A program made the position numbers and the translations under genes. A stretch of DNA of 64,000 nucleotides from Antedon mediterranea (Eukaryota; Animalia; Echinodermata). Below the pieces are notes generated by a model, which searched no databases, was not told the origin of the DNA, and saw only the letters and a program-made list of their open reading frames with translations. Location of the stretch: assembly GCF_964355755.1 (NCBI RefSeq), contig NC_092674.1, positions 1,488,001-1,552,000 on the forward strand, read 5' to 3'. Below are positions 18,280 through 55,302 of the stretch, piece by piece (within the stretch, counting starts at the first letter, position 1; every line of letters begins with the position of its first letter).

Positions 18280-21200
18280 TCACTGATCCACGCTCAGTTC
18301 ATCATCAGATCCGTCGATGTCGCTTTCAAGCAGAGACGAAGGAGTGTCCGTGGCACCGCGCGACGGACCCATGCTAGAATGTGACCCGATACTTGGCGTA
18401 CGGGATATAGTCTGTCTATTTGCCATGGCAACTTCGTAATCTAGCGAGTAAGATCCTTGTGAGGATGATTGGCTGGACGACCCAGCGCTAGTTGATGTGC
18501 GTGTTTGGATACCGCTTGGTCCTGCTATTATCGATGTACTATTGTTTCGGCCTTTATTTTGTTGTGCCATTTCTGAGAAAGTAAAACATTTTTAATAATA
18601 ATCTTGGATCTAGTATATGCCTAATTAAATAAACATTATTGCAATTCATTAACAGGGAGTTTTTCGATTTCAAACGACCTAGGAACAATTTGGGCCATGG
18701 TAATTAATTGTGTGCATGTGGAGAAGTTAGGACGTACTTCCTCTCCCTATTCCACTACGATTTCGGTGATTTCTTTGCCTAGGTGACGACTGACGACACA
18801 TCAATACATAGGTTCTAGGAAATCTAAAGCTCTCTAATATCTAGGTCCTCATCCACGTTAATTACTATCTTGTATTGAATTTTCCCGCAAACGACAATGT
18901 CAATTAGCTGAAACTAAGCCAGGACTGTTTAAAGCACCTTGGTTGGTCTTACCACTGACCAAGGGCTTCTATCGTCCAATGCACACCTTAACCATAGGAA
19001 AGGCATAAGCCAATGTGTCTGAGGCAGATACTAGTTACACTCACCAATAACATAAGGTTCTAATGCTTTTGGTACCATGTTCCTTGCTTCTTGTAAATGT
19101 TCCTCTTTACATTCACCTTTATCTAGGCCAAATGCCATGCCCATTCTCTTTAGTACTTCTATGTCATCGTGAATCTCAAATGCATTATCAAAACTAAACA
19201 GATACTCAAATCTAAAGAAAAAAACAACAAATGATTTCCATTGATTTACTCATTGTATTAGCTTTTATAACATAGACTGAAATCGTGCTAAGAAACTGAA
19301 GTATTTATGGTGTACATATTATACCAAGGCAATCCAAGTGAGTGAGTGGCCGAGCGGTTAAGACAGTGGAACCGTAATCACGTAGCCATAACATCGGCAG
19401 GGGTTCGGGGCTCACTCACTCCATGGTTCTGGTGGTAGAACGAGTCTTCTCGGATAAGGACTATAAACCGTAGGTCCAGTGTACACAACTTGCTCGTGTG
19501 CACTTTAAAGAACCTAGTACATCTTTCGAGACGAGTAGGGGGTTACCCCGGTGTACTAGTACATCACAGCCACTGATCACCAACTGGGCCCTCTGGGAGA
19601 TCAGTCTTTGACTGAAGAGGTCACCCAGTATAAAGATAAACAAAAAAAAACCAACAACAGGATGCTGAGCTCTAGAGATCAAATGGTTTATCTGTGGCTG
19701 TGACAGGATGCTGAGCTCTAGAGATCAAATGGTTTATCTGTGGCTGTGACAGGATGCTGAGCTCTAGAGATCAAATGGTTTATCTGTGGCTGTGACAGGA
19801 TGCTGAGCTCTAGAGATCAAATGGTTTATCTGTGGCTGTGACAGGATGCTGAGCTCTAGAGATCAAATGGTTTATCTGTGGCTGTGACAGGATGCTGAGC
19901 TCTAGAGATCAAATGGTTTATCTGTGGCTGTGACAGGATGCTGAGCTCTAGAGATCAAATGGTTTATCTGTGGCTGTGACAGGATGCTGAGCTCTAGAGA
20001 TCAAATGGTTTATCTGTGGCTGTGACAGGATGCTGAGCTCTAGAGATCAAATGGTTTATCTGTGGCTGTGACAGGATGCTGAGCTCTAGAGATCAAATGG
20101 TTTATCTGTGGCTGTGACAGGATGCTGAGCTCTAGAGATCAAATGGTTTATCTGTGGCTGTGACAGGATGCTGAGCTCTAGAGATCAAATGGTTTATCTG
20201 TGGCTGTGACAGGATGCTGAGCTCTAGAGATCAAATGGTTTATCTGTGGCTGTGACAGGATGCTGAGCTCTAGAGATCAAATGGTTTATCTGTGGCTGTG
20301 ACAGGATGCTGAGCTCTAGAGATCAAATGGTTTATCTGTGGCTGTGACAGGATGCTGAGCTCTAGAGATCAAATGGTTTATCTGTGGCTGTGACAGGATG
20401 CTGAGCTCTAGAGATCAAATGGTTTATCTGTGGCTGTGACAGGATGCTGAGCTCTAGAGATCAAATGGTTTATCTGTGGCTGTGACAGGATGCTGAGCTC
20501 TAGAGATCAAATGGTTTATCTGTGGCTGTGACAGGATGCTGAGCTCTAGAGATCAAATGGTTTATCTGTGGCTGTGACAGGATGCTGAGCTCTAGAGATC
20601 AAATGGTTTATCTGTGGCTGTGACAGGATGCTGAGCTCTAGAGATCAAATGGTTTATCTGTGGCTGTGACATGATCAGTTCCACATCCCCTAAACTGAAT
20701 TTCAATTGGCCAATTGGTTTGCTCAAATGATTGGTTACGAACACCATGGCCAAAATATACGTACACCATACAGTACTGCTGGTATTTGTCGCAGCCAGAC
20801 ATAAGATCAAAAGACTGTTACGAGTTCCTATCTTGGCAAGGTGAGCTCAGCGTCCTGTTGTAGCTTTTATTATACTTACTTATCATTTGATATACTGCAA
20901 TCAATAACAGTCTTTTTGCTGGTGTTGACAATGATGTAAGGTAAGTGGATTGCTGAGCTGCTACTAGGAGCACTCACTGACCCAGACTGCTCCATTGATT
21001 TGTTCCTTTGAACAAGGTTCTTAAATGCTATTTGCTGATGAAAAAATAATAATAGAATAATTTTATTTAAAAGAGAAATTAATGATAAAAAAATCAACAA
21101 ACACTATAAAGCTCTGTCTACACTATCAAATTAGACAAAAACAGTGTGATGTAGCCAGATATAGTAGTGATATGACATCATGTCCATATATGGGCACATC

Positions 21201-24200
21201 ACATTTTGGCACATAAAATTTGATAGTGTCGACAGAGATTTAGTATGAAAGTTTATCAGTGATGTGTAGACAGCATAAATTGTAAAATCACCTGTAGTAT
21301 TAGTTCCTGTAGCTGTGTAGTCTTTTGCCGTATTCGTTCTTCCCTTTGTTTTTTCTCCTGTTCTAAATTCTGACATTCTTGCGCCGAGTTTGTTGGTAAG
21401 CCAATCCATCGGATTTCTTTCTTTTCTTTGGAAATGATATTCATGGCCATTAAGACGTTGAGGGCGTCGTAAACTCTCCTTCGGATGTTTTTCTGATCAT
21501 ACTGTGCCTATTCAAAAAAATTTTAAAATTTCATTTATTTGTCTTTACAATCTTAGATAATTAGTAAGTGTCATTACTTAACTAGTATTTAATTAAAATT
21601 AAGAGTAAAAAATGGTAGTTAAGATTACAGTACTAACCTGTTCTGATGGTGATAACCTGTGGTGCGGTGGAATACCTGCAAACTCTTGCACTAACTCGTC
21701 AGCAACCTCATTATATGATGTTACGCCTTTCTTCTGAACCTTCTCACAAACCTTATTTGAAAAATGTCTAAGCCCCTTGCCTTCTTTCTCTCGTTTTCGC
21801 CTCTTTCCACTTCCCCTATAAAAAATGTAAACAGATTTGCATAGATGACATCAATACTGAATGTATGTGTACTACTATAGTACCACAGTAACAATTATTC
21901 TTAACATAATATAAAAAAAATGCCTTTACTTACGAGAATTCTTGATTATCGCTGTCCATATAAATTGTTCTTTTCCTACTGCAAAACCAAATTAAGAATA
22001 TTTGGATTAATATAAACAGTAGCCACAATGTTTCAATCTTTAAAATTAAAGATGTATTGTCCCTTGAAACACAAAAAAATGAAGGTCAAAATATTCTAAA
22101 TTTAAATCGGCCATATCAAAGTAATATTAAAGTTATTCACTTTAAGTCGAAAATTCGAGCCAAAAACAACAAGTTTACGTAATTAACAGGTAAATTAATT
22201 TGATTACATTTCGTCTAGAAAATCGTCGTGAGCGAAAGTAAACAAAGATTTCAAACCATGAGTATGCATTATGCATGATGCTAATTAGGATTGTTTACAA
22301 CTTGCACGGTTGAGAAGGTGTTTTCACACAGATCGCGAGGAAGTTTTATGAATATGCATACAGAGTAGCCAAACAAGCGCGTTGCAATATGAGATATGTT
22401 TTGATCAAAAACTTTGACTGGAAGTCAAAGTTATTTTTTGAACAAAAAAACGTCTGTATTTCAGTTAAATAATTTTTTTTTCGACTAATTTTTGGTGAAA
22501 GTTAATAACTATTATGATACTTCAAAATAACCCACTTTTTTTCAAAATCTTATATTTTTTATTTTTTTGGAATTAGTCAAAGGGACAATACATCTTTAAG
22601 TAAATAAAAAAAGAGCTAGAATAAAGCTCTGTCTACATTATCAAACAAGTTTGACAAAAAAAAGTGTGATGTGCCCAAATATGGTAGTGATATGCCCAAA
22701 TACGTTAGTGATATGACATCATCATGTCGATATATGGGCACATCGCATTTTTTTGTTACATAAAGTTTAATAGTGTAGACAGAGCTTAAGGCACTAATTA
22801 TTCTTACCCCCATGGTGACTCCAGGCCAACAGGGGCTAATATATGTGGACTGCCACCTAAAACCGTTGGTACTGTACGCTGTTGGGTTCCAAGAATCTGA
22901 AGAAAATATAAAAAATTGAATTTCATCAACTGTTAATACGAACATGAAAACATTCTCTTAAATAACTTGGTTCTTAAGATCTGTTTACACTATCAAACTG
23001 TATGCGACAAAAATAATATGATATGCCTATATATGGACATTATGATGTCATATCAATACCATATTTGGGTATCACTACCATATTTGTGCACATAACAATT
23101 TTGTTGTCAAACTAGTTTGATAGTGTAGACAGAGCTTTAATGTGTATGTATCCAATGATCTATGTATTTGGTACACCAGTAATCCTGATCAAGTGACGTT
23201 TCACTACTGTTGCTTACCACAGGTGATCCTGTAGTTGTAAGTGTCCTGTGTTGGCTCTTAGGCAAGATCTGTGCTTCAGTCTTCAAAGGAGACGTCTTGT
23301 ACATACCTCCAGGAATCACCGCTAAAGGTAATGCTAATGTTCCTAAGAAGAAGAAAAATGTATACAGATTACAGTGAATTTTTATTTATTTATTTCGGTA
23401 TATATAAAAAACATACAAAACAGCAGCACTGAAAAGTCTGAAAACGTTTGTTAACATATATATATATATATAAAAAAAACACATACAATATTGCAAGTTT
23501 AAGAAAGAGTTAGCATTTATAGGTAAGTTTAACCCTTTTCTGTTGAAGTTTAAGATTGATCTAATGAGGAGGCCACTAGCCTTTTGTAGGGGCTATGAGG
23601 GTATCTGGCCTCTACAGAAGGCTGGTTTCCAAACTTTAATATTTTTTCTTAATACATTTACAGATGATACAGTAGCAATTTAAAAAATAAATTAGGTTAA
23701 AATTTCGCAATAAACACAGTCAGATTTGAATAATAAACACAGTCCTTAAATAATAAACACTTGTTATTAATAAGATTTCTGACGACATTTAGATTGGTTT
23801 TAGCACACATTAGAATATCAGCTTACAATGAATTACCATAATACATCTAGTGGTGGTAGTATTATCTATATTGTATGTCAAGCAACATAATGAATATATT
23901 TACAGTATATTCAAGTCTATGTTGATTACATTTAATACAAGCTACAGCATGTGAACAAGAACAACAAAATGGTGGTTTTAACCGAATAAAGTCTAAATTT
24001 CTCTTGTGAATTTGAGGGAGGCTCTGGATTCGTTCTTTCGTTTTTTTTTCTTTGGGTGACTATTTATCATTCTCACAGATTTCCTTATCTTTATTGTTTC
24101 AAATTAATTAATTAAAATTCAGTTAATCACTGGGCGGTTTAGAATTTATTCTGTGCCTGTGATGTTTATAAATGAACCTACAGTAACACTTTAAATCTAT

Positions 24201-27200: not shown

Positions 27201-30200
27201 AAAAATACCTTTGTTTTTAAAATCGAACCTATAGTTCCCGAGATACAGCTCTTTGAAACGTGGCGGCCGCGCGCTTTTTTGCGTAAAAACCGAAAATTGA
27301 AATTGCGATATCTCGAAAACCGTTGGTCCGATAAGGTTAAAATTTGAAAATTTGGTTTTAATTGCTATGAATCACCCATATACCAAATTTCATCAAAATT
27401 GGAAGAGGTAGGGTTTAAAATTCCATTTTTTTTGGGTGAACTGAGATGGAATGACCCTTCTATTATTTAAACATAATCAGTGCATCTATTGGCTATTTCT
27501 ATTGGTTGTTTAAAATATATTTATTGTCAGTGAAATTGATATTGCAAAGAGAGAGTGGGTGTTCAAAAGTTAAGGGTGGTTGACATTAGCAGCTACTGCA
27601 AGAAGAACACAGTGCATACTACTGTATACTATATTTAAATACAGAATATAATTCAAATGCCATGTACAGTACAAGTATGATGGGAAACCAACTGTATTGT
27701 ATTGTAGTATATAGCATAATGCCTATCTTGACACTATGTATAAGGTACATGTGCAGTGTACCATTTTGCTATTGTACTTTAAATTAGCAAGTAATGTGTA
27801 AAATACTAAACAATCTATGCAAAGGCATCAAATTAATATAATCATTCAGTCAGAAATTTTAATATTGAAATGTTCACTGATTTGGAATGACACGCAAGAA
27901 AATAGAAACTATAATTCCATTATCACAAATTCTGTATTGAGATATGAGATTTGAATGAAACACAGGGCAGTGAAGAGATTATAATATAAGAGTGTAATAC
28001 TGTATTGAGATATGAGATTTGAATGAAACACAGGGCAGTGAAGAGATTATAATATAAGCGTGTAATACTGTATTGAGATATGAGATTTGAATGAAACACA
28101 GGGCAGTGAAGAGATTATAATATAAGCGTGTAATACTGTATTGAGATATGAGATTTGAATGAAACACAGAGCAGCAGTGAAGAGATTATAATATAAGCGT
28201 GTAATACTGTATTGAGATATGAGATTTGAATGAAACACAGGGCAGTGAAGATATTATAATATAAGCGTGTAATACTGTATTGAGATATGAGATTTGAATG
28301 AAACACAGGGCAGTGAAGAGATTATAATATAAGCGTGTAATACTGTATTGAGATATGAGATTTGAATGAAACACAGGGCAGTGAAGAGATTATAATATAA
28401 GCGTGTAATACTGTATTGAGATATGAGATTTGAATGAAACACAGGGCAGTGAAGAGATTATAATATAAGCGTGTAATACTGTATTGAGATATGAGATTTG
28501 AATGAAACACAGGGCAGTGAAGAGATTATAATATAAGCGTGTAATACTGTATTGAGATATGAGATTTGAATGAAACACAGAGCAGTGAAGATATTATAAT
28601 ATAAGAGTGTAATACTGTATTGAGATATGAGATTTGAATGAAACACAGAGCAGTGAAGAGATTATAATATAAGCGTTTAATACTGTATTGAGATATGAGA
28701 TTTGAATGAAACACAGGGCAGTGAAGAGATTATAATATAAGCGTGTAATGCTGTATTGAGATATGAGATTTGAATGAAACACAGAGCAGTGAAGAGATTA
28801 TAATATAAGCGTGTAATACTGTATTGAGATATGAGATTTGAATGAAACACAGGGCAGTGAAGAGATTATAATATAAGCGTGTAATACTGTATTGAGATAT
28901 GAGATTTGAATGAAACACAGAGCAGTGAAGAGATTATAATATAAGCGTGTAATACTGTATTGAGATATGAGATTTGAATGAAACACAGCGCAGTGAAGAG
29001 ATTATAATATAAGCGTGTAATACTGTATTGAGATATGAGATTTGAATGAAACACAGGGCAGTGAAAAGATTATAATATAAGCGTGTAATACTGTATTGAG
29101 ATATGAGATTTCAATGAAACACAGGGCAGTGAAGAGATTATAATATAAGCGTGTAATACTGTATTGAGATATGAGATTTGAATGAAACACAGAGCAGCAG
29201 TGAAGATATTATAATATAAGAGTGTAATACTGTATTGAGATATGAGATTTGAATGAAACACAGGGCAGTGAAGATATTATAATATAAGCGTGTAATACTG
29301 TATTGAGATATGAGATTTGAATGAAACACAGGGCAGTGAAGATATTATAATATAAGCGTGTAATACTGTATTGAGATATGAGATTTGAATGAAACACAGA
29401 GCAGTGAAGAGATTATAATATAAGCGTGTAATACTGTATTGAGATATGAGATTTGAATGAAACACAGGGCAGTGAAGATATTATAATATAAGCGCGTAAT
29501 ACTGTATTGAGATATGAGATTTGAATGAAACACAGAGCAGTGAAGAGATTATAATATAAGCGTGTAATACTGTATTGAGATATGAGATTTGAATGAAACA
29601 CAGGGCAGTGAAGAGATTATAATATAAGCGTGTAATACTGTATTGAGATATGAGATTTGAATGAAACACAGGGCAGTGAAGAGATTATAATATAAGCGTG
29701 TAATACTGTATTGAGATATGAGATTTGAATGAAACACAGGGCAGTGAAGAGATTATAATATAAGCGTGTAATACTGTATTGAGATATGAGATTTGAATGA
29801 AACACAGAGCAGCAGTGAAGAGATTATAATATAAGCGTGTAATACTGTATTGAGATATGAGATTTGAATGAAACACAGCGCAGTGAAGAGATTATAATAT
29901 AAGCGTGTAATACTGTATTGAGATATGAGATTTGAATGAAACACAGGGCAGTGAAGATATTATAATATAAGCGTGTAATACTGTATTGAGATATGAGATT
30001 TGAATGAAACACAGAGCAGTGAAGAGATTATAATATAAGAGTGTAATACTGTATTGAGATATGAGATTTGAATGAAACACAGGGCAGTGAAGATATTATA
30101 ATATAAGCGTGTAATACTGTATTGAGATATGAGATTTGAATGAAACACAGGGCAGTGAAGAGATTATAATATAAGCGCGTAATACTGTATTGAGATATGA

Positions 30201-32050
30201 GATTTGAATGAAACACAGGGCAGTGAAGAGATTATAATATAAGAGTGTAATACTGTATTGAGATATGAGATTTGAATGAAACACAGGGCAGTGAAGATAT
30301 TATAATATAAGCGTGTAATACTGTATTGAGATATGAGATTTGAATGAAACACAGGGCAGTGAAGAGATTATAATATAAGAGTGTAATACTGTATTGAGAT
30401 ATGAGATTTGAATGAAACACAGCGCAGTGAAGAGATTATAATATAACAGTGTAATACTGTATTGAGATATGAGATTTGAATGAAACACAGGGCATGCAGT
30501 GAAGAGATTACAATATAAGCGTGTGTAATACTGTATTGAGATATGAGATTTGAATGAAACACAGGGCAGTGAAGAGATTATAATATAAGCGTGTAATACT
30601 GTATTTTAGACTGTATATTCTCTTTATTTAAAAAATAATGATCAATTTACATCTTGTGGCCAAATTGCATGTAAAACATGTCAAAAATACAAATACATTT
30701 TGACAATTTCAGTGAAAAACATACGACCTGCAAATTCTAAACTTTCAGCACTTTATATTTTCAATACAATAATGATTTTTTTTTAAAGTACTGTTCTAAA
30801 ATCAGACACCGCTAGGCTAGTCCACGATTCTGTGTCTTACAAGAGGATGAAGTTGATTTATTTATCTTTGTGGGTCCATGAGAGAACATTCAGTTCAGAT
30901 TGTATGTCTTTGTGGGTCCACAAGAGAACATTCAGTTCAGATTGTATGTCTTTGTGGGTCCACGAGAGAACATTCAGTTCAGATTGTATGTCTTTGTGGG
31001 TCCACGAGAGAACATTCAGTTCAGATTGTATGTATTGGATGGAAGTTTAAAGCCTCTTTCATCACACTGGACTTTAATTATAATATTTCATGGGTAAAGT
31101 TACAGTACCTTGGTTAAATTCTTTTTTTTTTTCCAGTATAATAACGCAAATGGCTTAAATGCGGATTTACCTACCAGGATGTAAAAACATGGATGATAAA
31201 CCACAAAATGTAAAAGTACAATTGTAAGTATCATGAATGATAAACCACAAATGTAAATGTACAATTATCTGTATGTACAGCATGTGGAACTAAAGTGAAA
31301 CAACCAGCAACAAGCAACAAATCCCTTCATATGCAAATGATCTAGTGATTGAATAAAGCCATGTAGGCTAATCCCCAGTTACACTGCCTCACTGGCTTAC
31401 ATTCTGTATGCTGCTGCTGGCTCCATTCATCTATCAGTGTAAATACACTGCTAGTTCGATTTACAGAAAAGAAAAGAATACACACTAGAATGTATTGAAT
31501 GGTCTACATGTATTCACAAGACTATGGATGGGCTACTTAGTGCAAGTTGTACAATAATCTGCATATAGCTTTGGCTCTCACTGTAATCTAATAATGTTAT
31601 AGTGTTGTTTAATCCTAAGAATGTTCTTGGATTGATTTGAGTTAATGATAGTAGAATGTTATTAAGAAGAAGAGTTACTGTACTCAATCAAAATATTTAA
31701 ATAACAAGCCATTTTGTTAATTTTTTTATTTTTTTTTTTGCCAAATCTAAGTCTAAAGCTCTGTCTACACTATCAAACTTATATGGACATGATGAGGTCA
31801 TATAACTACCACATGTGGGCGTATTACTACCATATTTGGGCACATCACTACCATATTTAGGCATATCACTACCATATTTAGGCATATCACTACCATATGT
31901 GGGCATATCACTTTTTTTGTCAAACTAGTTTGATAGTGTTACACTGTAGACATAATTCAGCCCGCTCTCCTCACCTTTGCTTGTAATTGTTGGCTGTAAG
32001 TTGTGATCCTTTAGCGTTTGTAGTCCACTGTGTGTATCCAACATACCAGC
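18280..32050 (-). CDS. TFDP1: Transcription factor Dp (E2F dimerisation partner), 8 coding exons found; start codon uncertain (ATG at 32044 or in an unidentified upstream exon)
   Basis: Exons 32050-31975, 23342-23218, 22896-22808, 21815-21638, 21507-21292, 21034-20880, 19211-19045 and 18572-18280 splice in frame. [34 protein letters not shown] box [68 protein letters not shown], acidic tail. Confidence 0.95.
19338..19650 (+). mobile_element. tRNA-derived SINE with Deu/Nin-type central domain
   Basis: Box A tggccgagcgg, box B ggttcgggg, core cttctcggataaggactataaaccgtaggtcc...ttaaagaacc...gagtaggggttaccccggtg and an A-rich tail; near-identical to 62992-63312. Confidence 0.85.
19654..20862. 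mobile_element. MITE whose left terminus is tandemly amplified (46-bp unit, ~22 copies, 19657-20670)
   Basis: Left end acaacaggatgctgagctc; right end gagctcagcgtcctgttgt (18/19 inverted match). Unit acaggatgctgagctctagagatcaaatggtttatctgtggctgtg. Confidence 0.8.
21110..21239. mobile_element. Harbinger-like MITE family A copy
   Basis: agctctgtctacactatcaaa ... tttgatagtgtcgacagagat. Confidence 0.75.
22050..22595. mobile_element. Kolobok-like MITE
   Basis: TTAA|agatgtattgtccctt ... aagggacaatacatct|TTAA: perfect 16-bp TIRs and a TTAA TSD. Confidence 0.75.
22625..22786. mobile_element. Harbinger-like MITE family A copy
   Basis: TAA|agctctgtctacattatcaaac ... gtgtagacagagct|TAA; matching 3-bp TSD. 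Confidence 0.8.
22977..23136. mobile_element. Harbinger-like MITE family A copy (opposite orientation to the 22625 copy)
   Basis: TTA|agatctgtttacactatcaaac ... gtttgatagtgtagacagagct|TTA. Confidence 0.75.
24639..24814. mobile_element. Short MITE; a second, degraded copy lies at ~32489-32625
   Basis: TIRs cagggaaaaattt / aattttccctg; shared body ttagcaatattgctaa..tcaaactgatttt...gctatgctacactggcgaaa. Confidence 0.55.
25537..26767 (-). pseudogene. Sola2-type DDD transposase C-terminal remnant, interrupted by a SINE
   Basis: ORF 26767-26354 has [55 protein letters not shown] and resumes after the SINE as DIPGINFF...[13 protein letters not shown]...KFMHPHG..FYWP; the N-terminal half is missing. 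Confidence 0.8.
26052..26406 (+). mobile_element. Deu/Nin-type tRNA-SINE of a second subfamily, nested in the Sola2 transposase
   Basis: Box A tggccgagcgg, box B ggttcgagg and the same core ttctcggataaggactataaaccgtaggtcc, but a different 3' part ending in (taaaa)n. Confidence 0.8.
27932..30604. repeat. 68-bp minisatellite, ~39 copies, in a TFDP intron
   Basis: Unit ctgtattgagatatgagatttgaatgaaacacagggcagtgaagagattataatataagcgtgtaata with recurrent variants, including 71-bp gca-insertion units. It explains the run of 62-aa ORFs. Confidence 0.97.
30865..31032. repeat. 42-bp tandem repeat, 4 copies
   Basis: Unit tctttgtgggtccacgagagaacattcagttcagattgtatg. Confidence 0.9.
31757..31952. mobile_element. 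Harbinger-like MITE family A copy next to TFDP exon 31975-32050
   Basis: agctctgtctacactatcaaact, ~5 internal 21-bp units, then actagtttgatagtgt. Confidence 0.7.
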
Positions 32051-39460: not shown

Positions 39461-42400
39461 TTTGTTGTCCCAATAGACAAAAGGGCTTCTTAAATTATAT
39501 ATTTTGAAGTGAAAACTTCTATTGAATATCTGGTACTCCACAAATACCAACATAACTTGGTTAAACGGTTTCTTATAATCATTATAATACAGGAAATCAA
39601 TGTTTCATTTTTTGGTGTATGGGAGAAAAGTCTAAGGAGTCTGCTGGCATTTAAATTATATAGAGGGCAGTATTATTAAAAGTGAAATACAAGGTAAAAG
39701 TAAACTTGAAAGTTTTAAAATTAACAATAAAGTTACAAACAAAATTACATAAAAACTAAAATTAAACTTAATAAAACGATCAGCAAGAAATTAAAATAAT
39801 AAATCAAATAAATATTACATACTTAGCTAAAGTAGATAGCTTTTCAAGACTTTCAGATATTGAGACTATTGAAAAAAGTATTTATTATAATAAAGGAGAT
39901 GTTGTGGATCAAAGAGATAAAACCTACACTCAATAAACAATCGGATTCCATCAAAGCTAAATTGTTTATCTAACTCAGTAGGAGGAGCTAATTACTTAAT
40001 TAGCCCTCAATTAGCATTTCCTGTCACCAACTTATTATTGTTTTGTATTCACTTGATCTTGAAAATGGTTCTATGATGGTACCGAAACGTCGATTTCTCT
40101 TTTTGTCATTAAATTTTATATTGAAAATAAACTAAATAAATAAATAATTTATTTATCGTTAGATTAATTTTTTAAAAGCCTGGTACTGTATTCAATTTAA
40201 GAGAATGGTCTTTTTCTTACTGCGTTTCAAAGCAAATAAATATAGAAATCTCTCAATATGCCAACAAAAGAAGATTAACAAAATTGGGTCTTGAAATTTC
40301 CTTTTTCAGTTTAAATAAAGTTATTCACTTCCGTTGAAAAAAAAAACCAACAAAATGATTTCAATTATAAAGACAAAATTATAGACAAAATAAATGCTTA
40401 AATTTAATACAAATAAGTTCATTTTTTGGCTGACAATTTTGTTTGGTTTTAGGTAGTCTGTTTTTGCTTTTTACAAATTTGATTAGATCCCATTTTTGGT
40501 AAACGTGACTATTACGCGACATTAAAATGATCCATTTTTTACACAGACAATGTACCATTTTTTTTTTTTATTCTTTGCAGAATTTCATGTTCTTCAAGAT
40601 TTTGAAATCAAAAGGGCCAGAAGAACAAAACAGGGAGCAAGAAGGTCGAACAAGGAACGTACCAACAAGACAACAATATATTCTGTATTGCTTTACTCTC
40701 GATAAAATGGTGTACAAACGCTTGGTTGCTAAGTAACACCACAATGACAGGACAACATAGTTAACTTGTTTCAGAAATATTTTATTGTAAATAAAATGAT
40801 TTATCATACTGACATATGTATGTATTTTTTCTAAAATGAAGTTTATTTACAAAAATTATCCCCCATCCCGATTGTATAGCAGCTAGGTATTCTACAAAAA
40901 AAACTAAAAATGTGGTAATATTACTATTACTACTGTGTTCCATCATTTACAATATACAGTATTTATATACTTTTCACCTAGTATACTTAGCTTATATAAT
41001 AATAGATTCACTTCAGTACAGTTATAGGACAATTATTTCTTATCCTAAAATAACATTAATAAAACATTTTTAATCAAGAAAGTGTGACTTATAAATCTAC
41101 CTATATATTTCTAAAAATGTAGTGTTATGTTAAAACCATTGCCAAATGTAATTATACATTAATTTCCAATACAGTGGAAACATTACAACATTAATAATAA
41201 ACTCAGAATTTAAAATATATACTCATAACGGAACGTATATCTTTACAACATAACTTTACTAAAAATGTTCCTAAAAATAAATTTTAAAAGAAATGTCGAT
41301 TTTGTTTTTTCTGCTAGGAAAATTGAGTGATTGTCAATGTTATTATATATATGTTATTGTCATTATATAATATCGTACAGTGCATTTATAGTTTTTTTTT
41401 TCAAAGCAATTCCAAATATTAATTTCAAATAGTTACTCTTGAGTGAAGTCCATGCAAAATATTATATACAATACAAAGCATCTTGGTTGTAATACAGCAG
41501 AAGCTGTATTCAGGGGACACAAAGTAAAAGGGAATTATTATGTTTCAACCATATAGTCATGTCCTAAAACTTCCTCAATAAATGAACAATGTTTTAACAA
41601 TACAGCCAAGCCATATTGAGGGACAATCTTATTTAGGGGACAGACATTTTCCCAAGAATTAAGGGTCCCTGTGTTTTAACAGTACTGCCACTATTAAAGG
41701 ACACACCCCTATTAATTGGCAGTCTACTATCTAAAATAGATACTCCAATTACTTAATTTAAGTAAATATGTTTCTTTAATTTTTCTTGATAATAGTACTC
41801 TCTGGCAGTCAAACCTCAATACCAAGCATGCATTCTGTTGATGCACTATTTCTAGATGTCACTGCTGTATTTCTCTTGTGTCAGTACATTCAATTATTTC
41901 AATCCACCATGATAAGTTTGGCATTAGATTAGTTAAACAGCAAAGATAACATATAAAGCAGACAAATAATAGCAAATATCTTTCTTAAAAATCACACTTA
42001 ATGATACAACTATTTAATGTACCTGTCCTACATTATTGTATAAAAGTATTACTGCAATAAGAACTACTTTAAAATTGTTATAAATGTTAATAGTCATAAA
42101 ATGAAGGCACTACTGAACAAATGTGGTATATAGAATAACATATGAACACATCAAGTAAACATTACTGTATATACTCTGGTATAATCCCAACCCCTTGGGA
42201 GTGGGACTACACCTGGGAATAAATATTATCTGAAATCTGAATTTGGTTCAGAAAAATAATGATGGTTAAAAACTCATCTGAACTGGCTAGAGAAAGGCCT
42301 ACATCCAGACCAAAAGTCAATACTGGGACTATACCCGGGGATATGCATGTTGGTGAAATCAGACATAAAGTAGGGGGTGGGATTAACTAGAGGATATACA

Positions 42401-42567
42401 ATAAATAGACTGGTGAAACTTATTCCTCCATGCTAAAATACATTGAATAATAAAATATGAACACTATTATAAGAATGTTTATTATTGTTTAAAATAGATT
42501 AGCGCCAATAACGATCCTTACTTTTAAAAATAACTAATGTACAAAAGTTCATAAAACGTTTTAGAAA

Positions 42568-45500
42568 CTAAGGCCGTGAATCGTTATCCGATTCTGCTTT
42601 TGTATTTTGCATCTCGTAACTGTCGTTTGATTCGCCGTCGGACTCTACTTCTAACGAAACTATGGTGGTGCTCTCCACAACCGAATTATCTATCGTACTT
42701 TCCTCCTCTTCAGCAGCGGAATATTGAGACGACGTTCCCTCTAGCGGGTCTGTATCGCCTGTGGGGCGCACGTATCTGCCGCCACCACGATTACCAAATA
42801 ACAGAGGGGTGTTCTCGCCATCGCTGTCATCACTGTCTGATGAGTCATCTTCTATGTCTCCAGGAATGACTTTACGTTTGCAAACCGGACATGTACGCTT
42901 GTTGTTGGTCAGCCAAGGGTCAATGCATGGACAATGAAAAGCTAAATAAAACAAACAATTTGGAATTTAAACATAAAATACCAGACAAATTATGTAACTG
43001 GATAGTTAGAACAAATCATACAACTTGTCACTAGTCATCGTAACTTGCTAAACACCAGGTGAACATTTGCTAAACACTTGGTAAACAATATCAAAACACT
43101 TGCTAAACACTAGATAAACACTAGATAAACACTAGATAAACCCTAGGCATATTAGACTCACCATGATTACAAGGCAAAATGCGCAGCTTGTCGCCTTCAT
43201 TATATTCATCAAGACATATGGCACAAACATCATAATTTTCACCTGCAAAAAGAAAAATGGTATACTTTGAGAACCATCATTATGTTTGTTAATCTTGTGA
43301 TGTGCTCATATATGACATGATGATGATCACTACCATATTTTAGCATAGTGCAGACGAGCTTAATATTAAATTAGTTTTGCAAAAAGAGAGCCTACCTTTC
43401 TTGAATTTCTTGATGGGTAATTTTTTCAAGTGTTCTCTTGAGAGACGTGAACGTCTCAGCTTACGTCGGTCACGTAAATATTTTACAATCTGAATAGCAA
43501 AGAAAAATTCAATCGTAAAATCAATCTACAAGTATTAACTAGATCTCAATGTATTTAGGACAAGGAAGCTAATTACAAAGAACAAGTCAACTTCCCAGCA
43601 TGAATAACTAACTGTACATAGGTTATTAATAGTATTTCCTGTTGCTTACTAATTCTTTTCCTCTTTTAGCTTTATAAATTTATGAATCAAAAGAACCTTC
43701 CCCACCCTTTAAAAAATAATATTATTAATAATAATACTCACAATATAAACAAGCAGGAATATTAAACATGTACCACAGACTGCTAAGAATGGTACAAAAT
43801 AGTAGAGAGGGGAAGGAAAAGATATATATGGATACAATGTGACTGTACTCCTAGCAAAATAAAAAGAAAAGAGCACAATATGATTAGATATGCTTATACT
43901 AATGATATGGTAGTGATGACGTTTGCAATTTTCAGTAACTTAGGGTGGCATTTTGTAATATACGATCCATACAATATTTTTCTCAAAATCAGAAAAAAAA
44001 TGTAAATTATTTATTGGTTTGCAACCTTTGTTTATGAAAATTACAACGTTATCCACCACGTACCAACATTCTTAATCATATTAAACTTACCATAAATGTA
44101 AAAGTTAAAAGCACACAGAAACCAACAATGCAGATGAATGGGGTATACAGATTCATAGGGAATGTGTTATGCGCATATATTACAACACTATACCTGTGAA
44201 ATAATAAGGCGTAGAGGATGATGGAACAAGCGGACAAAGAAACATGACATGATAGCAAAAGAATATGAATTCTTTATTTCTAAAGCTCTGTCTACACTAT
44301 ACTATCAAACAAAAAAAGTGTGATGTGCCCAAATATGGTAGTGATATGACATCATCATGTCCATATATGGCCACATTTTGTTGTCACATAATGTTTGATA
44401 GTGAAGACAGAGCTTTATTCTATACACATCCATTCAGATTATTGTATTTCTGTCCTATTGTACTACTATGGTGATTTAAGAAATGTTCATGTCAAAACTA
44501 TTCTACTGCAGTAATTGAATTTTATTTATTGTGAAATAATGAAGGATGATGGGTAGAAAGGAGAGGTCTAAGAAAAAAAAAGAAAATTAATTTAATCCTA
44601 GTCGTAAATACTACACAAATTTCCATTCAGATCTTTTTCATTGTGTCAGATTAGTATTACCATGGTAATTTATAAAAAAAACGTCAAAACTATTTAAATT
44701 AGTTACTGCAGTAACTACTTATAAAGCTATATTGAACAAAAAGTAAAATCATACATGCCAATGTTTACTGCAGTAACTGCAGTAGAATAATTTCTACCTA
44801 AAAATAAATTCAGTTTTTTCTGAGAGGATTAGAGCAATGCAAGTACATCCTGGAATCGTGAAGTCACAAACCAAATAATTATTGTGAAAAATCTTACCCT
44901 GTTTTATAATCACTCTTGGTCAATAGAAGACCATCTTCTTCACCTACAAACACAGAAGGTATAACAACTTCATTTCCATCTGCAAAAATCAATAAAAAGA
45001 AAGTCAACTACTAGACAACTGTCAAGCTAAAAATGACATTATGTCATTTGTCAAACCACTGTATTACGATTATATAATATTGTTGCTTTTTTATATCTAC
45101 CGGTATATATATTTGTACATTATAGTTGTAAATTATAACTCAATTTGCTGCTATGTTTTAATAATTATGTTGAATTTGAATAAATACCCAATATATTTAA
45201 TTTTATACAGTACATCTGTATATTATAGACAGGCTAATTATATTGATGCTATGATAGGTTACATACATACAGACCATATTTTGTCAGCTTTCTTGGAACA
45301 GTGGAATATTCAAATTTTATTTTTTCAACAATTTTTTTTATTTGAGATAATAAATATTTATTGTTTCTGCAACATATACTGAATTTTGTCAAAGTAACCT
45401 CATTATTATAAAATTAAATATTTATAATTTGGTTATATATGAATAAAAAAAAAGGAAAACAAAATTGAATAAAAATTGAATAAAAATTGATTGAAACATA

Positions 45501-48468
45501 ATACCAAAATATACATAGTATACTGTAGCACAAGATTTACTCATTGATTTCATTGATTCTTTAAACCAGTATATTTTGAACAATTTATGAATATAGATTT
45601 AGTGTAAATAGATTAATTGAAGGTGGACGTAATTCCAATTGAAATATAATAAAAACAAAACAAATACAACACACAACATGTTACAACATGCTGGTATATG
45701 AATCATTATTTTAATTGCAAGTTCTACAAATTCTACAGATTAATGAATGCACTGATTTCATTCACTTATTGTCCATTTTCAAATTTACATCAAAAAAACA
45801 CAACATTGAGTAATTGTGAAAGTAATTGTATCAACATGCATACAATACTATGTATGTATTTCTTTTGTCCTGTGGAAAATGAGTCAGGTACTGTATGGGC
45901 GTGGTAACCTACAAGTGGGTGCAGCTCATGGACGATACCACTGTATTGAAGGGGTGTTACTTTTCGAATTATGCATTAGCAAGGGAATCGCCAATTATGT
46001 TTATAAATGTACTGTAAGCTGGGCACAAATAGACAATATAAGGAAACTAATATTGTATATCCAATCTCTATCAAAAACAGCAACTAGCACATTTTTTACA
46101 AATTATTAACTTTGATAGACCAAAAAATAAATGTTGCAAAAATTGTTCAACCTGCAATTGACTATGACAAATCTACTAGCAATTTGCTAGGATGAATTTT
46201 GAGCGATGTCTACTTTTTGACATAAAAATAAAAGAGTTGATAACTTACGTTTACTAGGATTCATAGGCAGTATAGCATTTGATCCAACATTATAGACGAT
46301 GGCAGCTAAATAACCTGCTGTCTGAACATTCAATACCTGCACAAAAATAAGAGTTCATTAAATACATGATGATTTAGTAGTTTAAATTGTATAGCATTCT
46401 CAATTTTTCATGGAGTAAGGAAATTAAATTTTGTTTTATACATAAAGATTGTAATCATCCCATGCATAATGTATTTGAGGTGCAACTTAGTGGTACAGGT
46501 CCATCATCTCTCGTACAAATAGGTTTCATAACGGCTTTCTTCCAGCTGCCTGCTTTTCAGTATGCGACACTTTATAATTGTTTTTGTATATATATCTCAG
46601 GAAATAAGTAATTTTACATTGATAATGAAAGAATGAAGTTGAGACATTTGTAGAAAATATATAAAAGAGACTTGAATATATTATTAGACCGGTAGAATTC
46701 TTACCTTTACATCGAATTCACAATTATTACGACGGATTAATGCAACGTATGGCAAACTTTGATTAATGATTGGCGGCGACAGCACATCATGACAAGCATC
46801 GATAGGCTCAACAACTACAACCATTCCCTACAAAGACAAATACATAATGAAACACTCCACTAAACAATACACCCATTGCCTTAAGCTCTGTTTACACTAT
46901 CAAACTTTATGTGACAAAAAAATGTGATGTGCCCATATATACCCATGATGTCATATCACTACCATATTTGGGTTATCACACACTTTGTCTCAAACTAGTT
47001 TGATTTCTGAAGAATAAGATGTGTTTGGAAACAGTATGCCCACCAGTGGCGTAACAGCTATGGCTAAACCCATGCGCCCAGAGCTTAAGGGGAGAAACCA
47101 CAATGCAACTACCCCTGTGATACGCCACTACAGGAAGTGTGTCCCTTTGCCCACTGTGATATGCCACTAAGTGTTCCCCTTTGCCCACTGTGATATGCCA
47201 CTAAGTGTTCCCCTTTGCCCCTGTGATATGCCACTAAGTGTGACCATTAAAAACCAGGTTGTCATACTCTTCCTATGGCAACTTTCACTTTCTATTATTA
47301 TACATTAACTGCAAGATTAGGGACTTGACAATATCAAATTGTTTCCCTTTGGACTGTTACTACACATCACAAGTTTACAAATGCTTCTTCCTTGTTTGGA
47401 GGAAATAGTATGGATTGCCAGTCATCTGGTAATACTTTAAACGGACAACATTGCATAATACCATGTGTACACCAATTATATATTTTTATCAGGTGATACA
47501 ATGTTAGAAATGTAATTCTTGGATTCCAACTTATATTATGTTTGAGTGCAAGTTTTTGTATTGTTTATATTCAATATTTTACAGTATGTTCAACTTGCAT
47601 TAATATTGCAATAATAAATCTATATTCTTGTTGTTATATGTAATGCTTTGTATTTTTTTTGTGATATTTTATGTTCAACTTCAATTTATTTATATATAAT
47701 AAATTGCAATAATAAAGCTAAATGAGCACCATGCTCATACCAATTATTGTTATGTAATCTTTTTGGCACTGACCCTTGATTTATATAATGCTTTAATTCC
47801 GTTGTAAACAAATAATAAAACAAAACTACTGAATACCTTGAGGCCTTCTTGGGGTAGTTTAGTACCAAACGTCGCAGGATATGAGGGTAATTCCTGCGTT
47901 CCGGTGCCATTAGGTTTTTTCTACAAAAAAGATCAGTGAGTTGTTAAACAAAACAAACATTTTTAATTTTAGCCTTAAAAATAGGGTAAATTCTCCAAAA
48001 AAAAACAAACAATAGAAGAAGAAAAACATTGTATTTTTTAATGGGAATGCATTGTTCAAATACAGTTAACTCTGCCAATACCACATACCATATGTGGTAT
48101 TGGCAGAGTTACTCTAGGGATGACCTTCATACTGTATATCTATTTTAATTGGAATGCATTGTTGAAATACAGTTAACTCTGCCAATACCACATACCCTAG
48201 GGATGACCTTGTATATCTATTTTTCCAGAAAGTACGGTATTACGAATGTGTTTTAATAGTAAAAATTTAGAATTTAGGACTTTTTGGTTCAGTTTTTTTT
48301 ATTTTCGTAGAGTACAGTATCGGGAGATTGGACTGTATTGTTAGATGACAACAAACTATTGCAATTTTAAATCATACTCACAAGATACACATCAGCGGAC
48401 ACACTGTACTGACTAAGAACAACGCACAATACGATGCTCAAAATGTTAACTAGTAAACACTTCTTCAT
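42568..48468 (-). CDS. RNF13: PA-TM-RING E3 ubiquitin ligase (RNF13/RNF167 family)
   Basis: Exons 48468-48382 (signal peptide [26 protein letters not shown]), 47920-47837 (PATFG), 46827-46705 ([13 protein letters not shown]), 46336-46249 ([19 protein letters not shown]), 44979-44898 (IPSVFVGE), TM exon 44193-44091 or 43850-43742, 43489-43396 ([14 protein letters not shown]), 43242-43162 ([21 protein letters not shown]) and 42941-42568 ([22 protein letters not shown] plus ENTPLL dileucine). Confidence 0.94.
43742..43850 (-). CDS. RNF13-like alternative transmembrane exon B (109 nt)
   Basis: ttttgctag|g agt aca ... tat att|gtgagt; encodes [36 protein letters not shown]; phase 2 to 0. Confidence 0.85.
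44091..44193 (-). CDS. RNF13-like alternative transmembrane exon A (103 nt)
   Basis: tttcacag|g tat agt ... ttt atg|gtaagt; encodes [34 protein letters not shown]; phase 2 to 0. Confidence 0.85.
44284..44414. mobile_element. Harbinger-like MITE family A copy
   Basis: agctctgtctacactat ... gtttgatagtgaagacagagct. Confidence 0.75.
46884..47004. mobile_element. Harbinger-like MITE family A copy (right end truncated)
   Basis: agctctgtttacactatcaaact...atatcactaccatatttggg...caaactagtttga. Confidence 0.65.
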
Positions 48469-48587
48469 TTTGTTTTCATGCTACGGATGAATACTAACAT
48501 TACTGGAAAAAAGAAAAGGTACCAGCTTTAGATAAACAAGTAAACAACATTATGAAAATGTAAATCATAAGAATCAGAAATGGGCAA

Positions 48588-50666: not shown

Positions 50667-51559
50667 TTAATATAAGTCTTACTAGTAAATAAAGACCTTG
50701 TTTAATATTGCTATTTTATGGGATATCACATTAATCAAGACCCTACTAACTAATAATTATTAGCTTTAGGAGTACTCCTAAAACAATACAATTTTAGATT
50801 ACAGTATCAAGTAACACTGTGTAACCCCAAACGTCACATCAATCAACAAAACAACAACAAAGCATCTCGCGGTTGTTGTGACTAAATAAAAAGCCTACCG
50901 CCGCCGTGCGTGCTGGCCTAGCCTGATCAATCAACTGATACTTCATAAATACGCAATATTAAGTCTAACTTATTTACCTAAAGCAAATCAACATTAAGAA
51001 ATATGAAATATCTACCAATACCTTTGCATTTCAAAGGAAATATCCTGTTCAATTAGGTATATTTCTCTTTCGTTTCAAACGACAATATGTATCGCAGGCA
51101 GAGAGAGTGTGTCGATCATCACAAGTTCACAAAATGGTTGCTCCACAAAAATGAATGGGCGATGGGGGCGCACTGTCGACCTACTAAAATACACAAAAGC
51201 CTATTGTCAACTCGTATTATAAACTTTTTTAAATGCGAATTTTTAATAATAATCTATATAAAGGTGTCGGTTTCCCAGTTATTTACTGGTACTCACAAGG
51301 AGGGCCACGTGAAGGCCACCTTTATCCTCCTCTTTTTTAATTAGTGGGGAGAAACCGAAGTTCTCGGAGAAAAACCCCAACTTACCAGAAATTCATACCC
51401 AACTTACTAGTTTGTATTTTATTTTACCAAAATTAAATTGTACCAACATAACTTACCTCCGTATTAATTAATTTACACACCAACTTACCAGTTTATAGAT
51501 TCCATCAAAAAATTACTGTCGTACCAAAATGAATTATTGCAGTACCATAATTAATGTAA

Positions 51560-54500
51560 AACCACACAACTTACCAGTACAATACACAAACTTACCACAT
51601 ACCATAATTAATTTAAAACCTCACAACTTACCAGTACAATACACAAACTTACCTCAGTACCATAATTAATTTACATCCACACAACTTACCAGACAATAAA
51701 CACATTTACCTCAGTACCATAATTAATTTAAAACCACACAACTTACCAGACAATAAACACATTTACCTCAGTACCATAATTAATTTAAAACCACACAACT
51801 TACCAGTACAATACACAAACTTACCTCAGTACCATAATTAATTTAAAACCACACAACTTACCAGTACAATACACAAACTTACCTCAGTACCATAATTAAT
51901 TTAAAACCACACAACTTACCAGTACAATACACAAACTTACCTCAGTACCATAATTAATTTAAAACCACACAACTTACCAGACAATACACAAACTTACCTC
52001 AGTACTATAAATTAAAAACCACACAACTTACCAGTACAATACACAAACTTACCTCAGTACTATAATTAATTTAAAACCATACAACTTACCAGTACAATAC
52101 ACAAACTTACCTCAGTACTATAATTAATTTAAAACCATACAACTTACCAGTACAATACGCAAACTTAGCTCATTACCATAATTAATTTAAAACCACACAA
52201 CTTACCAGTACAATACACAAACTTACCTCAGTACTATAATTAATTTAAAACCATACAACTTACCAGTACAATACGCAAACTTAGCTCATTACCATAATTA
52301 TTTTAAAACCACACAACTTACCAGTACAATACACAAACTTACCTCAGTACTATAATTTAAAACCACACAATTTACCAGTACAATACACAAACTTACCTCA
52401 GTACCATAATTAATTTAAAACCACACAACTTACCAGTACAATACACAAACTTACCTCAGTACTATAAATTAAAAACCACACAACTTACCAGTACAATACA
52501 CAAACTTACCTCAGTACCATAATTAATTTAAAACTACACAACTTCCAGTACAATACACAGACTTGCCTCAGTACCATAATTAATTTAAAACCACACAACT
52601 TACCAGTACAATACACAAACTTACCTCTCAGTACTATAATTTAAAACCACACAACTTACCATTGATATAATACTTACCGTCAATATATGTTTTTTATATT
52701 TATTGCGGTATATAATAATAATGTTGGCATTACAATAACAATACACATTGTGTACCAATCCAATTTACCAGTGAGATGTAACAAATTAATTTAATCGTCA
52801 ATAACTAATTATCTAACTTAATTTAATTAGTAAACAGGGTTACATCAGGTGGTTAAAATCAGTACCGAAAGTACGAACCAACTTTATATACCATCGAGTA
52901 AAAATTCTAGAAGTAAGGCGCGATTTACCGAATTTTGCCCTTACGTAAATTTATATATAGAAACCACACAACTTACCAGTACAATACACAAACTTAACTC
53001 AGTACTATAATTAATTTAAAACCACACAACTTACCAGTACAATACACAAACTTACCTCAGTACCATAATTAATTTAAAACCACACAACTTACCAGACAAT
53101 ACACAAACTTACCTCAGTACCATCATTAATTTAAAACCACACAACTTACCAGTACAATACACAAACTTACCTCAGTACCATAATTAATTTAAAACCACAC
53201 AACTTACCAGTACAATACACATTCAAACTTACCACATACCATAATTATTTTAAAACCACACAACTTACCAGACAATACACAAACTTACCTCAGTACCATA
53301 ATTATTTTAAAACCACACAACTTACCAGACAATACACAAACTTACCTCAGTACTATAATTAATTTAAAACCACACAACTTACCAGTACAATACACATTCA
53401 AACTTACCACATACCATAATTATTTTAAAACCACACAACTTACCAGTACAATACACAAACTTACCTCAGTACCATAATTATTTTAAAACCTCACAACTTA
53501 CAAGACAATACACAAACTTACCTCAGTACCATAATTAATTTTAATCCACACAACTTACCAGTACAATACACAAACTTACCTCAGTACCATAATTAATTTA
53601 AAACCACACAACTTACCAGTACAATACACATTCAACCTTACCACATACCATAATTAATTTAAAACCACACAACTTACCAGTACAATACACAAACTTACCT
53701 CAGTACTATAAATTAAAAACCACACAACTTACCAGTACAATACACAAACTTACCTCAGTACCATAATTAATTTAAAACCACACAACTTACCAGTACAATA
53801 CACATTCAAACTTACCACATACCATAATTAATTTAAAACCACACAACTTACCAGTACAATACACAAACTTACCTCAGTACTATAAATTAAAAACCACACA
53901 ACTTACCAGTACAATACACAAACTTACCTCAGTACCATAATTATTTTAAAACCACACAACTTACCAGACAATACACAAACTTACCTCAGTACTATAATTA
54001 ATTTAAAACCACACAACTTACCAGTACAATACACAAACTTACCTCAGTACCATAAATTAAAAACCACACAACTTACCAGTACAATACACAAACTTACCTC
54101 AGTACCATAATTATTTTAAAACCACACAACTTACCAGACAATACACAAACTTACCTCAGTACTATAATTAATTTAAAACCACACAACTTACCAGTACAAT
54201 ACACAAACTTACCTCAGTACTATAAATTAAAAACCACACAACTTACCAGTACAATACACAAACTTACCTCAGTACTATAATTAATTTAAAACCACACAAC
54301 TTACCAGTACAATACATATTCAAACTTACCACATACCATAATTATTTTAAAACCACACAACTTACCAGTACAATACACAAACTTACCTCAGTACCATAAT
54401 TATTTTAAAACCTCACAACTTACAAGACAATACACAAACTTACCTCAGTACCATAATTAATTTTAATCCACACAACTTACCAGTACAATACACAAACTTA

Positions 54501-55302
54501 CCTCAGTACCATAATTAATTTAAAACCACACAACTTACCAGTACAATACACATTCAACCTTACCACATACCATAATTAATTTAAAACCACACAACTTACC
54601 AGTACAATACACAAACTTACCTCAGTACTATAAATTAAAAACCACACAACTTACCAGTACAATACACAAACTTACCTCAGTACCATAATTAATTTAAAAC
54701 CACACAACTTACCAGTACAATACACATTCAAACTTACCACATACCATAATTAATTTAAAACCACACAACTTACCAGTACAATACACAAACTTACCTCAGT
54801 ACTATAAATTAAAAACCACACAACTTACCAGTACAATACACAAACTTACCTCAGTACCATAATTAATTTAAAACCACACAACTTACCAGACAATACACAA
54901 ACTTACCTCAGTACCATAATTAATTTAAAACCACACAACTTACCAGTACAATACACAAACTTACCTCAGTACTATAAATTAAAAACCACACAACTTACCA
55001 GTACAATACACAAACTTACCTCAGTACCATAATTAATTTAAAACTACACAACTTCCAGTACAATACACAGACTTGCCTCAGTACCATAATTAATTTAAAA
55101 CCACACAACTTACCAGTACAATACACAAACTTACCTCTCAGTACTATAATTTAAAACCACACAACTTACCATTGATATAATACTTACCGTCAATATATGT
55201 TTTTTATATTTATTGCGGTATATAATAATAATGTTGGCATTACAATAACAATACACATTGTGTACCAATCCAATTTACCAGTGAGATGTAACAAATTAAT
55301 TT
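51560..55302. repeat. ~58-bp minisatellite in two blocks (51560-52660 and 52960-55170), each followed by the same ~130-bp tail
   Basis: Unit aaccacacaacttaccagtacaatacacaaacttacctcagtaccataattaatttaa; the tail attgatataatacttaccgtc...gatgtaacaaattaattta is duplicated at 52661 and 55171. Confidence 0.95.

Follow-up and report, generated by a model that had tools for sequence, protein, structure and literature searches.

A tandem-duplicated pair of probably mutually exclusive transmembrane exons in an RNF13-type ubiquitin ligase gene of echinoderms

Can a single-pass membrane ubiquitin ligase exchange its only transmembrane (TM) helix by splicing, and what would be gained by doing so? The question is raised by an RNF13-type gene on the minus strand of a 64,000-nucleotide stretch of Antedon mediterranea DNA (NC_092674.1, positions 1,488,001 to 1,552,000 of the forward strand), referred to here as the window. 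A preliminary description, made from the sequence alone, had pointed to two exons for the TM segment, lying between the exons that encode the protease-associated (PA) domain and the juxtamembrane segment. The two, called A and B, are best read as a tandem-duplicated mutually exclusive exon pair, a known class of event that was not found described for the RNF13 family. That they form a conserved, mutually exclusive pair is close to certain; the whole reading given below, tandem duplicates that are likely spliced singly and likely alter partner choice, is held with a modest preponderance.

The gene model (all coordinates refer to the minus strand of the window) begins with E1 (48382..48502), which carries the start codon and a hydrophobic, signal-peptide-like stretch. 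E2 (47837..47920) opens the PA ectodomain, E3 (46705..46827) and E4 (46249..46336, one copy here) continue it, and E5 (44898..44979) is the last constitutive PA exon, its end at 44898 being in phase 2. Exon A (44091..44193; 103 nt, 34 aa) and exon B (43742..43850; 109 nt, 36 aa) each encode the last PA strand, a hinge and the TM helix. E7 (43396..43489) starts in phase 0 at 43489 with the basic juxtamembrane segment, E8 (43162..43242) encodes the first half of the RING-H2 domain, and the coding part of E9 (42568..42941) the second half, an acidic tail, an ExxxLL dileucine motif and the stop. The model with exon B (373 aa) is identical to the public RNF13-like protein P0002 of Antedon mediterranea, the one member of its cluster; exon A is missing from this record. 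A tblastn match at 47717-47637 was discarded as an artefact of sum statistics (alone, its E-value is 5.5). Downstream of the stop, RNA-like contigs over 40779-42941 (minus strand) reach about 40780, suggesting a 3′ UTR of ~1.8 kb, and those of sequencing run X1 show several differences from the window sequence. A MITE-like short element of very high copy number, bounded by terminal inverted repeats of 20 nt, lies in the E5–A intron (44281-44417) and in the E2–E3 intron (46880-46972). Elsewhere in the window, Pfam matches in 4 of the 30 open frames tested revealed exons of a TPR-repeat gene (5304-8354, plus strand) and of an E2F/DP winged-helix gene (21602-21850, minus strand); large tandem arrays occupy 51540-55171, 27928-30605, 19657-20675 and 12764-15348, with periods of about 58, 68, 46 and 89/280 nt.

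The encoded protein has the architecture of the PA-TM-RING ligases. A luminal PA domain is recognized by Pfam (E 2.8e-12), and the fold of the structure model resembles the PA domains of VSR1 (Z 19.3, rmsd 2.5 over 143 residues) and GRAIL (Z 17.3). The RING-H2 domain is of the C3H2C3 type, with C229, C232, C247, H249, H252, C255, C267 and C270 invariant in 63 sequences, and is also matched by Pfam zf-RING_2; its best match among solved structures is the RING of human RNF13 (E 2.8e-36, 72% identical). Assignment to the RNF13/RNF167/Godzilla branch relies on this best match, on homologue names that are mostly RNF13-like and on the ExxxLL motif in E9. A hydrophobic N-terminal helix is predicted at residues 3-18, and a single TM segment is indicated by 19-residue Kyte–Doolittle means of 2.5 for the A form and 2.6 for the B form. 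One long helix follows the PA fold in both structure models, that of P0002 (B form) and that of the crinoid Anneissia (A form).

The features from which an exon pair had been proposed withstood reanalysis. Both exons are intact in the model, with phases 2 to 0; retranslation returned the same peptides, each running from a linker through Pro-Phe into a hydrophobic helix. The splice sites are CACAG (acceptor) and ATG/GTAAGT (donor) for A, GCTAG and ATT/GTGAGT for B. The reading frame is kept by single inclusion only, giving 371 aa with A and 373 aa with B; joining A to B leads to a stop at residue 231, 155 nt before the last junction, and skipping both to a stop at residue 156, 168 nt before it. 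Since both stops lie >150 nt before the last junction, nonsense-mediated decay (NMD) is expected under the general rule on that distance. Homology of the two exons, adjacent, equal in phase and similar in length, is supported by a global BLOSUM score of 56 between them (shuffled mean 13.9, sd 7.2; none of 5000 shuffles as high), with 10 identities in Antedon, and by a profile of non-crinoid A exons, with which exon A scores 20.0 bits against 11.0 for the best of 300 shuffles of the intron region. When a profile of all other species' segments was run over the 2868 six-frame peptides of the window, exons A and B were the two matches obtained (E 1e-10 and 2e-6, the next at 0.13), so no third TM copy is present, and no second E4 was found in the 64 kb. 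Some peculiarities of the splice sites may be mentioned. The acceptor of exon B is a NAGNAG (43847-43852) whose second AG would cost one residue; the transcript contig described below and the public protein both take the first. Exon A is preceded by an AG-free stretch of 78 nt (44194-44272), the longest among the nine acceptors of the gene and devoid of a consensus branch motif, and its acceptor may depend on a distant or weak branch point. A hint of recursive splicing, exon A starting with GT, was set aside, as E4 and E8 start with GT too.

Is each exon used alone? Five sequencing runs contain the stretch, none of them recorded as RNA; X1 was taken as RNA because a contig of it is spliced. 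This contig (depth 277) covers B and E7, lacks the 252-nt intron between them, with GT–AG ends, and runs on past B into the last part of E5, exon A being skipped. As the DNA run X5 is unspliced, the joints of the X1 contig establish E5–B–E7 splicing. Thus, among the junctions anticipated in the preliminary description, 44898>43850 and 43742>43489 occur in one X1 contig, while 44898>44193 and 44091>43489 were not seen there. No exon A transcript was seen in Antedon mediterranea in this single contig, and contigs drop minor forms, which makes the absence weak evidence; searches for short proteins carrying exon A gave one candidate, which did not score, and one repetitive chance match, results with no bearing on expression. 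Use of B alone is seen in the Antedon contig, and use of A alone only in annotated isoforms of relatives and in assembled proteins. A frameshifted A+B product would be absent from protein sets in any case.

The relatives examined comprise 30 homologue clusters plus single records, with 13 named echinoderm species. Their isoforms are automatic annotations, of a kind that generally rests on RNA evidence. At least two annotated versions of exactly the TM segment are found in 10 of the 13 species, namely two each in Anneissia, Amphiura, Asterias rubens, Patiria, Acanthaster and Apostichopus, and three in Lytechinus variegatus, Strongylocentrotus and Diadema antillarum, as well as in L. pictus, where they stand in truncated models. 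A single form appears in the records examined for Antedon mediterranea (B), D. setosum (A) and A. amurensis (B). The RefSeq isoforms of the relatives swap exactly the A/B segment, which supports the proposed one-at-a-time use. In Anneissia, isoform X2 carries an annotated counterpart of exon A (25 of 34 residues identical, 74%) and X1 one of exon B (29 of 36); over the constitutive E3–E5, the two crinoids are 66-71% identical.

These figures bear on the view that, in Antedon, exon A is a relic, seldom used or in decay, with B now constitutive. Only B is annotated there and only B is in the RNA contig, the branch leading to Antedon A is 0.39 long against 0 for Anneissia A, and both annotated sea-cucumber forms are non-A, so that A may be dispensable. 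However, exon A is as conserved between the crinoids as the constitutive exons, has an open frame and a full GTAAGT donor, and retains the invariant A-type helix motif. A relic is accordingly quite improbable, and exon A is very probably used in Antedon mediterranea.

Outside echinoderms, the same TM segment is swapped, as seen at the protein level, in Priapulus (P0204/P0096) and Mercenaria (P0042/P0046), probably through independent duplications. One form is found in two hemichordates, amphioxus, Ciona, skates and rays (15 of 18 members listed), insect clusters, Limulus and ten other mollusc genera, a count that is weak evidence of absence because clustering at 90% can split isoforms. In molluscs, another segment is exchanged: the equivalent of E4 in the PA domain (window 46249-46336) is swapped in eight genera, Mercenaria (three forms), Littorina, Dreissena, Gigantopelta, Patella, Haliotis, Mya and Mytilus (records P0042/P0007/P0044, P0050/P0020, P0021/P0051, P0055/P0026, P0118/P0206, P0207/P0122, P0152/P0208 and P0033/P0237), and not in the records of Octopus, Saccostrea and Ostrea. 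Mercenaria combines three PA forms with two TM forms, giving up to six combinations. Among 80 metagenome loci, in which no echinoderm genomic DNA was recognized, none had two TM exon copies; in nine, a GT donor falls at the corresponding position, and six of those nine have the same AG acceptor as well, which indicates that the exon ends are old. In Lingula, a single protein model, P0058, contains two identical copies of the TM and juxtamembrane segment, probably duplicated during assembly or annotation.

How old is the pair? Altogether, 64 segments were cut, and a tree, weak with its 35 columns, was built from 46 of them, four rows being placed by likeness; Lingula, two RNF167s, tunicates, two L. 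pictus rows and others were omitted from it. All 18 B and extra copies fall on one side of a branch supported at 98/92, and the 11 A copies form a 90/86 group amid other animals' single exons; in Priapulus and Mercenaria, the second copy lies with the protostomes on a long branch. Exon A is of the same type as the single segment of hemichordates, amphioxus and vertebrates. Judged by these likenesses, A is the ancestral type and B the echinoderm-derived one. With crinoids left out of the profiles, each of the four crinoid exons is still assigned to its expected type, Antedon A scoring 31.4 bits as A and 10.3 as B, Antedon B 45.2 as B and 21.9 as A. Both Antedon exons resemble their Anneissia counterparts much more than they resemble one another, and the earlier proposal of an old duplication under selection is supported.

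A separate origin of the crinoid pair, with convergent likeness to the A and B of other echinoderms, deserves consideration. In approximately unbiased (AU) tests, grouping crinoid A and B as one clade is not rejected (p 0.276, on 35 columns), the TM segment was apparently duplicated separately in Priapulus and Mercenaria, and both Anneissia segments open with the same three residues. On the other hand, Val+4, Phe+11 and Tyr+15 are common to crinoid B and every other B (helix positions are numbered from the conserved Pro), the IVG motif and Phe+15 are common to crinoid A and every other A, the cross-scores favour orthology for all four crinoid exons, and the same tests reject Antedon-only (p 0.0013), echinoid-only (p 0.020) and asteroid-only (p 0.041) origins. 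Separate origin is thus improbable. We infer instead that one duplication, which we take to date from about 500 million years ago, occurred in the echinoderm stem. Further B-type copies would have arisen in sea urchins and sea cucumbers, and exon A was perhaps lost in the latter.

What does the swap change? It had been proposed to be limited to the TM helix and the luminal stalk. The helix part stands, but the first ~8 residues of the segment form the last β-strand of the PA domain, and what had been called a stalk amounts to a short hinge. Exon B supplies residues 156-191 of the P0002 model, with a predicted strand (157-163), some four hinge residues and a helix that starts at 168; the Anneissia A model has the same layout. 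Solved PA domains align over residues 22-165, so the exon-encoded strand closes the PA fold. The last 17 residues of the A and B segments align without gaps, and the length from the Pro to the exon end is identical.

Within this constant frame, each type has its own signature. Ile+4, Val+5, Gly+6, Cys+8 and Phe+15 are invariant in 11 of 11 A segments. In B, counted without six divergent extra copies and two L. pictus rows, Val+4, Cys+8, Phe+11 and Tyr+15 are found in 12 of 12 and Thr+7 in 11 of 12. Phe+11 and Tyr+15 occur in all 12 B but in none of the 11 A or of 24 segments of other animals, whose single exons do have Val+4 (15/24) and Thr+7 (7/24). Three of the seven invariant positions of B (Pro, Phe and Cys) are shared with A. 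The B invariants lie within a 120° arc of the helix (position-permutation p 0.0017), against p 0.032 for A and p 0.058 for the other animals, in a test that ignores shared ancestry. This conserved one-sided pattern of B resembles a helix–helix interface.

The RING, the juxtamembrane segment and the dileucine signal are common to the two forms, and both would therefore be putative active endolysosomal ligases, differing mainly in the helix face shown to substrates or dimer partners. Precedents exist among related ligases. Swapping the TM domain between RNF43 and ZNRF3 redirects the preference for FZD5 with localization unchanged, and leaves the handling of FZD6 as it was (PMC11231576). Dimers of plant RMR proteins depend on the TM region (PMC5085694), and RNF13 and RNF167 heterodimerize (PMC13370725). 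On balance, the main effect of the swap would be to retune the choice of membrane partners bound or paired with.

Two other effects were weighed. The swap could mainly alter trafficking, membrane-domain preference or proteolytic release instead of direct partner recognition; the alternatives of exon 17 of Dscam1 are said to steer dendrite versus axon targeting. B is less hydrophobic than A, with a Ser/Thr core, in seven of nine species pairs, and the hinge differs between the two. Cleavage of RNF13 on either side of the membrane has been reported (PMC8834447). However, the seven pairs are the non-crinoid ones: the drop and the polar core are absent in both crinoids, Antedon B being no less hydrophobic than A (Kyte–Doolittle 2.66 versus 2.58). 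Moreover, the length from Pro to exon end does not vary, the dileucine motif is constitutive, and TM swaps left localization unchanged in RNF43/ZNRF3 (PMC11231576) and in AtRMR1/2 (PMC5085694). This effect seems rather unlikely as the main one. Still less credible, to the point of being very improbable, is that the pair serves mainly for dosage control through NMD-sensitive double or zero inclusion, with the protein difference secondary. Both mis-splicing products do have stops >150 nt before the last junction, but the invariant residues particular to each exon are kept in the different classes, for which a poison exon would have no use, and sea urchins gained further in-frame copies. A change in membrane partners is thus retained as the preferred effect.

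How exclusive splicing would be achieved was approached by RNA folding. Steric exclusion was ruled out, the candidate branch point of B being about 200 nt from the A donor, and so was U2/U12 incompatibility, all donors being ordinary GT types. The A–B intron (240 nt) is predicted to form a single long hairpin (−58 kcal/mol, z −3.5, equalled in 2 of 200 shuffles) that spans from 9 nt past the A donor, where its first arm, box D (44013..44082), begins, to the candidate branch point of B (about −34), covered by its 3′ arm (43876..43945). Over the branch point, the hairpin is shut by 10 perfect pairs, a number reached in 0 of 500 shuffles; in 10 other donor–acceptor pairs the count is 7 at most. 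An alternative partner, box P (44832..44875), lies just past the E5 donor, and its predicted pairing with box D would loop out exon A: among 36 pairs of introns, none does better than the first 100 nt of the E5 and A introns (z −3.6, 0 of 100 shuffles). The best partners of box D in the pre-mRNA are the pre-B arm (−39.4), box P (−36.6) and a third (−35.2), with the limits of box D set after the pairing was seen; it is the fixed-window test on the intron starts that favours P.

In this scheme, box D over the branch point of B would lead to use of A, box D paired with box P would loop A out so that B is used, and NMD would remove the double- and zero-inclusion RNAs. The equilibrium prediction gives the advantage to the hairpin that masks B (0.77), yet B is what was observed. 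Box D is predicted to pair with box P only if the RNA stops short of the 3′ arm (0.86 and 0.77); with the B branch region held open, this pairing amounts to 0.0 and 0.11. A co-transcriptional or protein-assisted choice must hence be assumed. In addition, of 23 windows tiled over other parts of the gene, two show folding of similar or greater strength, and a dispersed repeat is matched by 14 nt of the 3′ arm. Box D paired no better than shuffles with the sequence immediately preceding A (3 of 40), and three pairings with the B–E7 intron, which folds worse than its shuffles, were likewise not above them. Predicted from one genome, the competing-structure switch is conceivable, with the balance leaning slightly against it.

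The preliminary description knew of no such arrangement, and literature searches, largely confined to non-subscription journals, found none for the RNF13 family. It is less unusual than had been implied, as the forms stand in the automatic annotations of relatives and belong to a well-studied class of event. RNF13 and RNF167 are not in the PMC8373072 supplement, which lists RNF128, and the supplements of PMC5740500 and PMC9741552 gave no matches, although a Drosophila or predicted human entry could be missed there. In the review PMC8834447, the role of the PA domain in RNF13-type ligases is called unclear and the TM helix is treated only as an anchor. The locus offers a natural, long-conserved swap of the helix with everything else constant, which bears on substrate choice by RNF13-type ligases; Phe+11 and Tyr+15 are the two residues to mutate, and sea urchin and sea star annotations already contain the forms, which are testable in embryos there. 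A ubiquitin ligase would also join the genes with repeated, convergent exon duplication. Tentatively, and with less confidence than for partner choice itself, RNF13/Godzilla might be a recurrent hot spot of exon duplication at two recognition surfaces, with three duplications of the TM exon (echinoderms, a priapulid and a clam) plus the PA exon in molluscs. In invertebrates, a structure-driven switch would then reprogramme an intramembrane substrate and dimer code by splicing, as the paralogues RNF13 and RNF167 do in vertebrates.

Among the closest known systems is Drosophila Dscam1, in which exons 17.1 and 17.2 are mutually exclusive and encode the membrane-spanning segment of a single-pass protein, as in the present gene; the alternatives reportedly affect localization (dendrite versus axon), and their choice is said, in a paper title, to involve steric hindrance and RNA structure. 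Dscam1, however, is a receptor and not a ligase, and the distance between the A donor and the B branch point leaves no plain steric block in Antedon. With RNF13, RNF167 and Godzilla, the gene shares the hydrophobic N-terminus, the PA domain, the one TM helix, the RING-H2 and the ExxxLL motif, but it has two alternative TM exons (three or more in sea urchins); TM isoforms of RNF13 or RNF167 appear neither in the accessible part of PMC8834447 nor in the human catalogue table of PMC8373072. That catalogue does record tandem-duplicated first exons of human RNF128/GRAIL (event 179, Gnathostomata; PMC8373072 supplement), likewise a PA-TM-RING ligase diversified by substitution of duplicated exons. 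RNF128 belongs to the Goliath branch, and its N-terminal exons swap the signal peptide and most of the PA domain, unlike the internal TM-helix exons A and B. For the putative RNA switch, the counterpart is ATE1, whose exons 7a and 7b are governed by element R3 of the intervening intron, pairing with an upstream or a downstream partner (PMC7797038); there, the partners are homologous, lie just before each exon and belong to a tested model, whereas the upstream partner in Antedon lies past the E5 donor and is predicted. Finally, in RNF43/ZNRF3, exchange of the TM helix between PA-TM-RING ligases shifts substrate preference (PMC11231576), but in a laboratory chimera of paralogous genes that are distant relatives; in Antedon, the swap would be natural and made within one gene.
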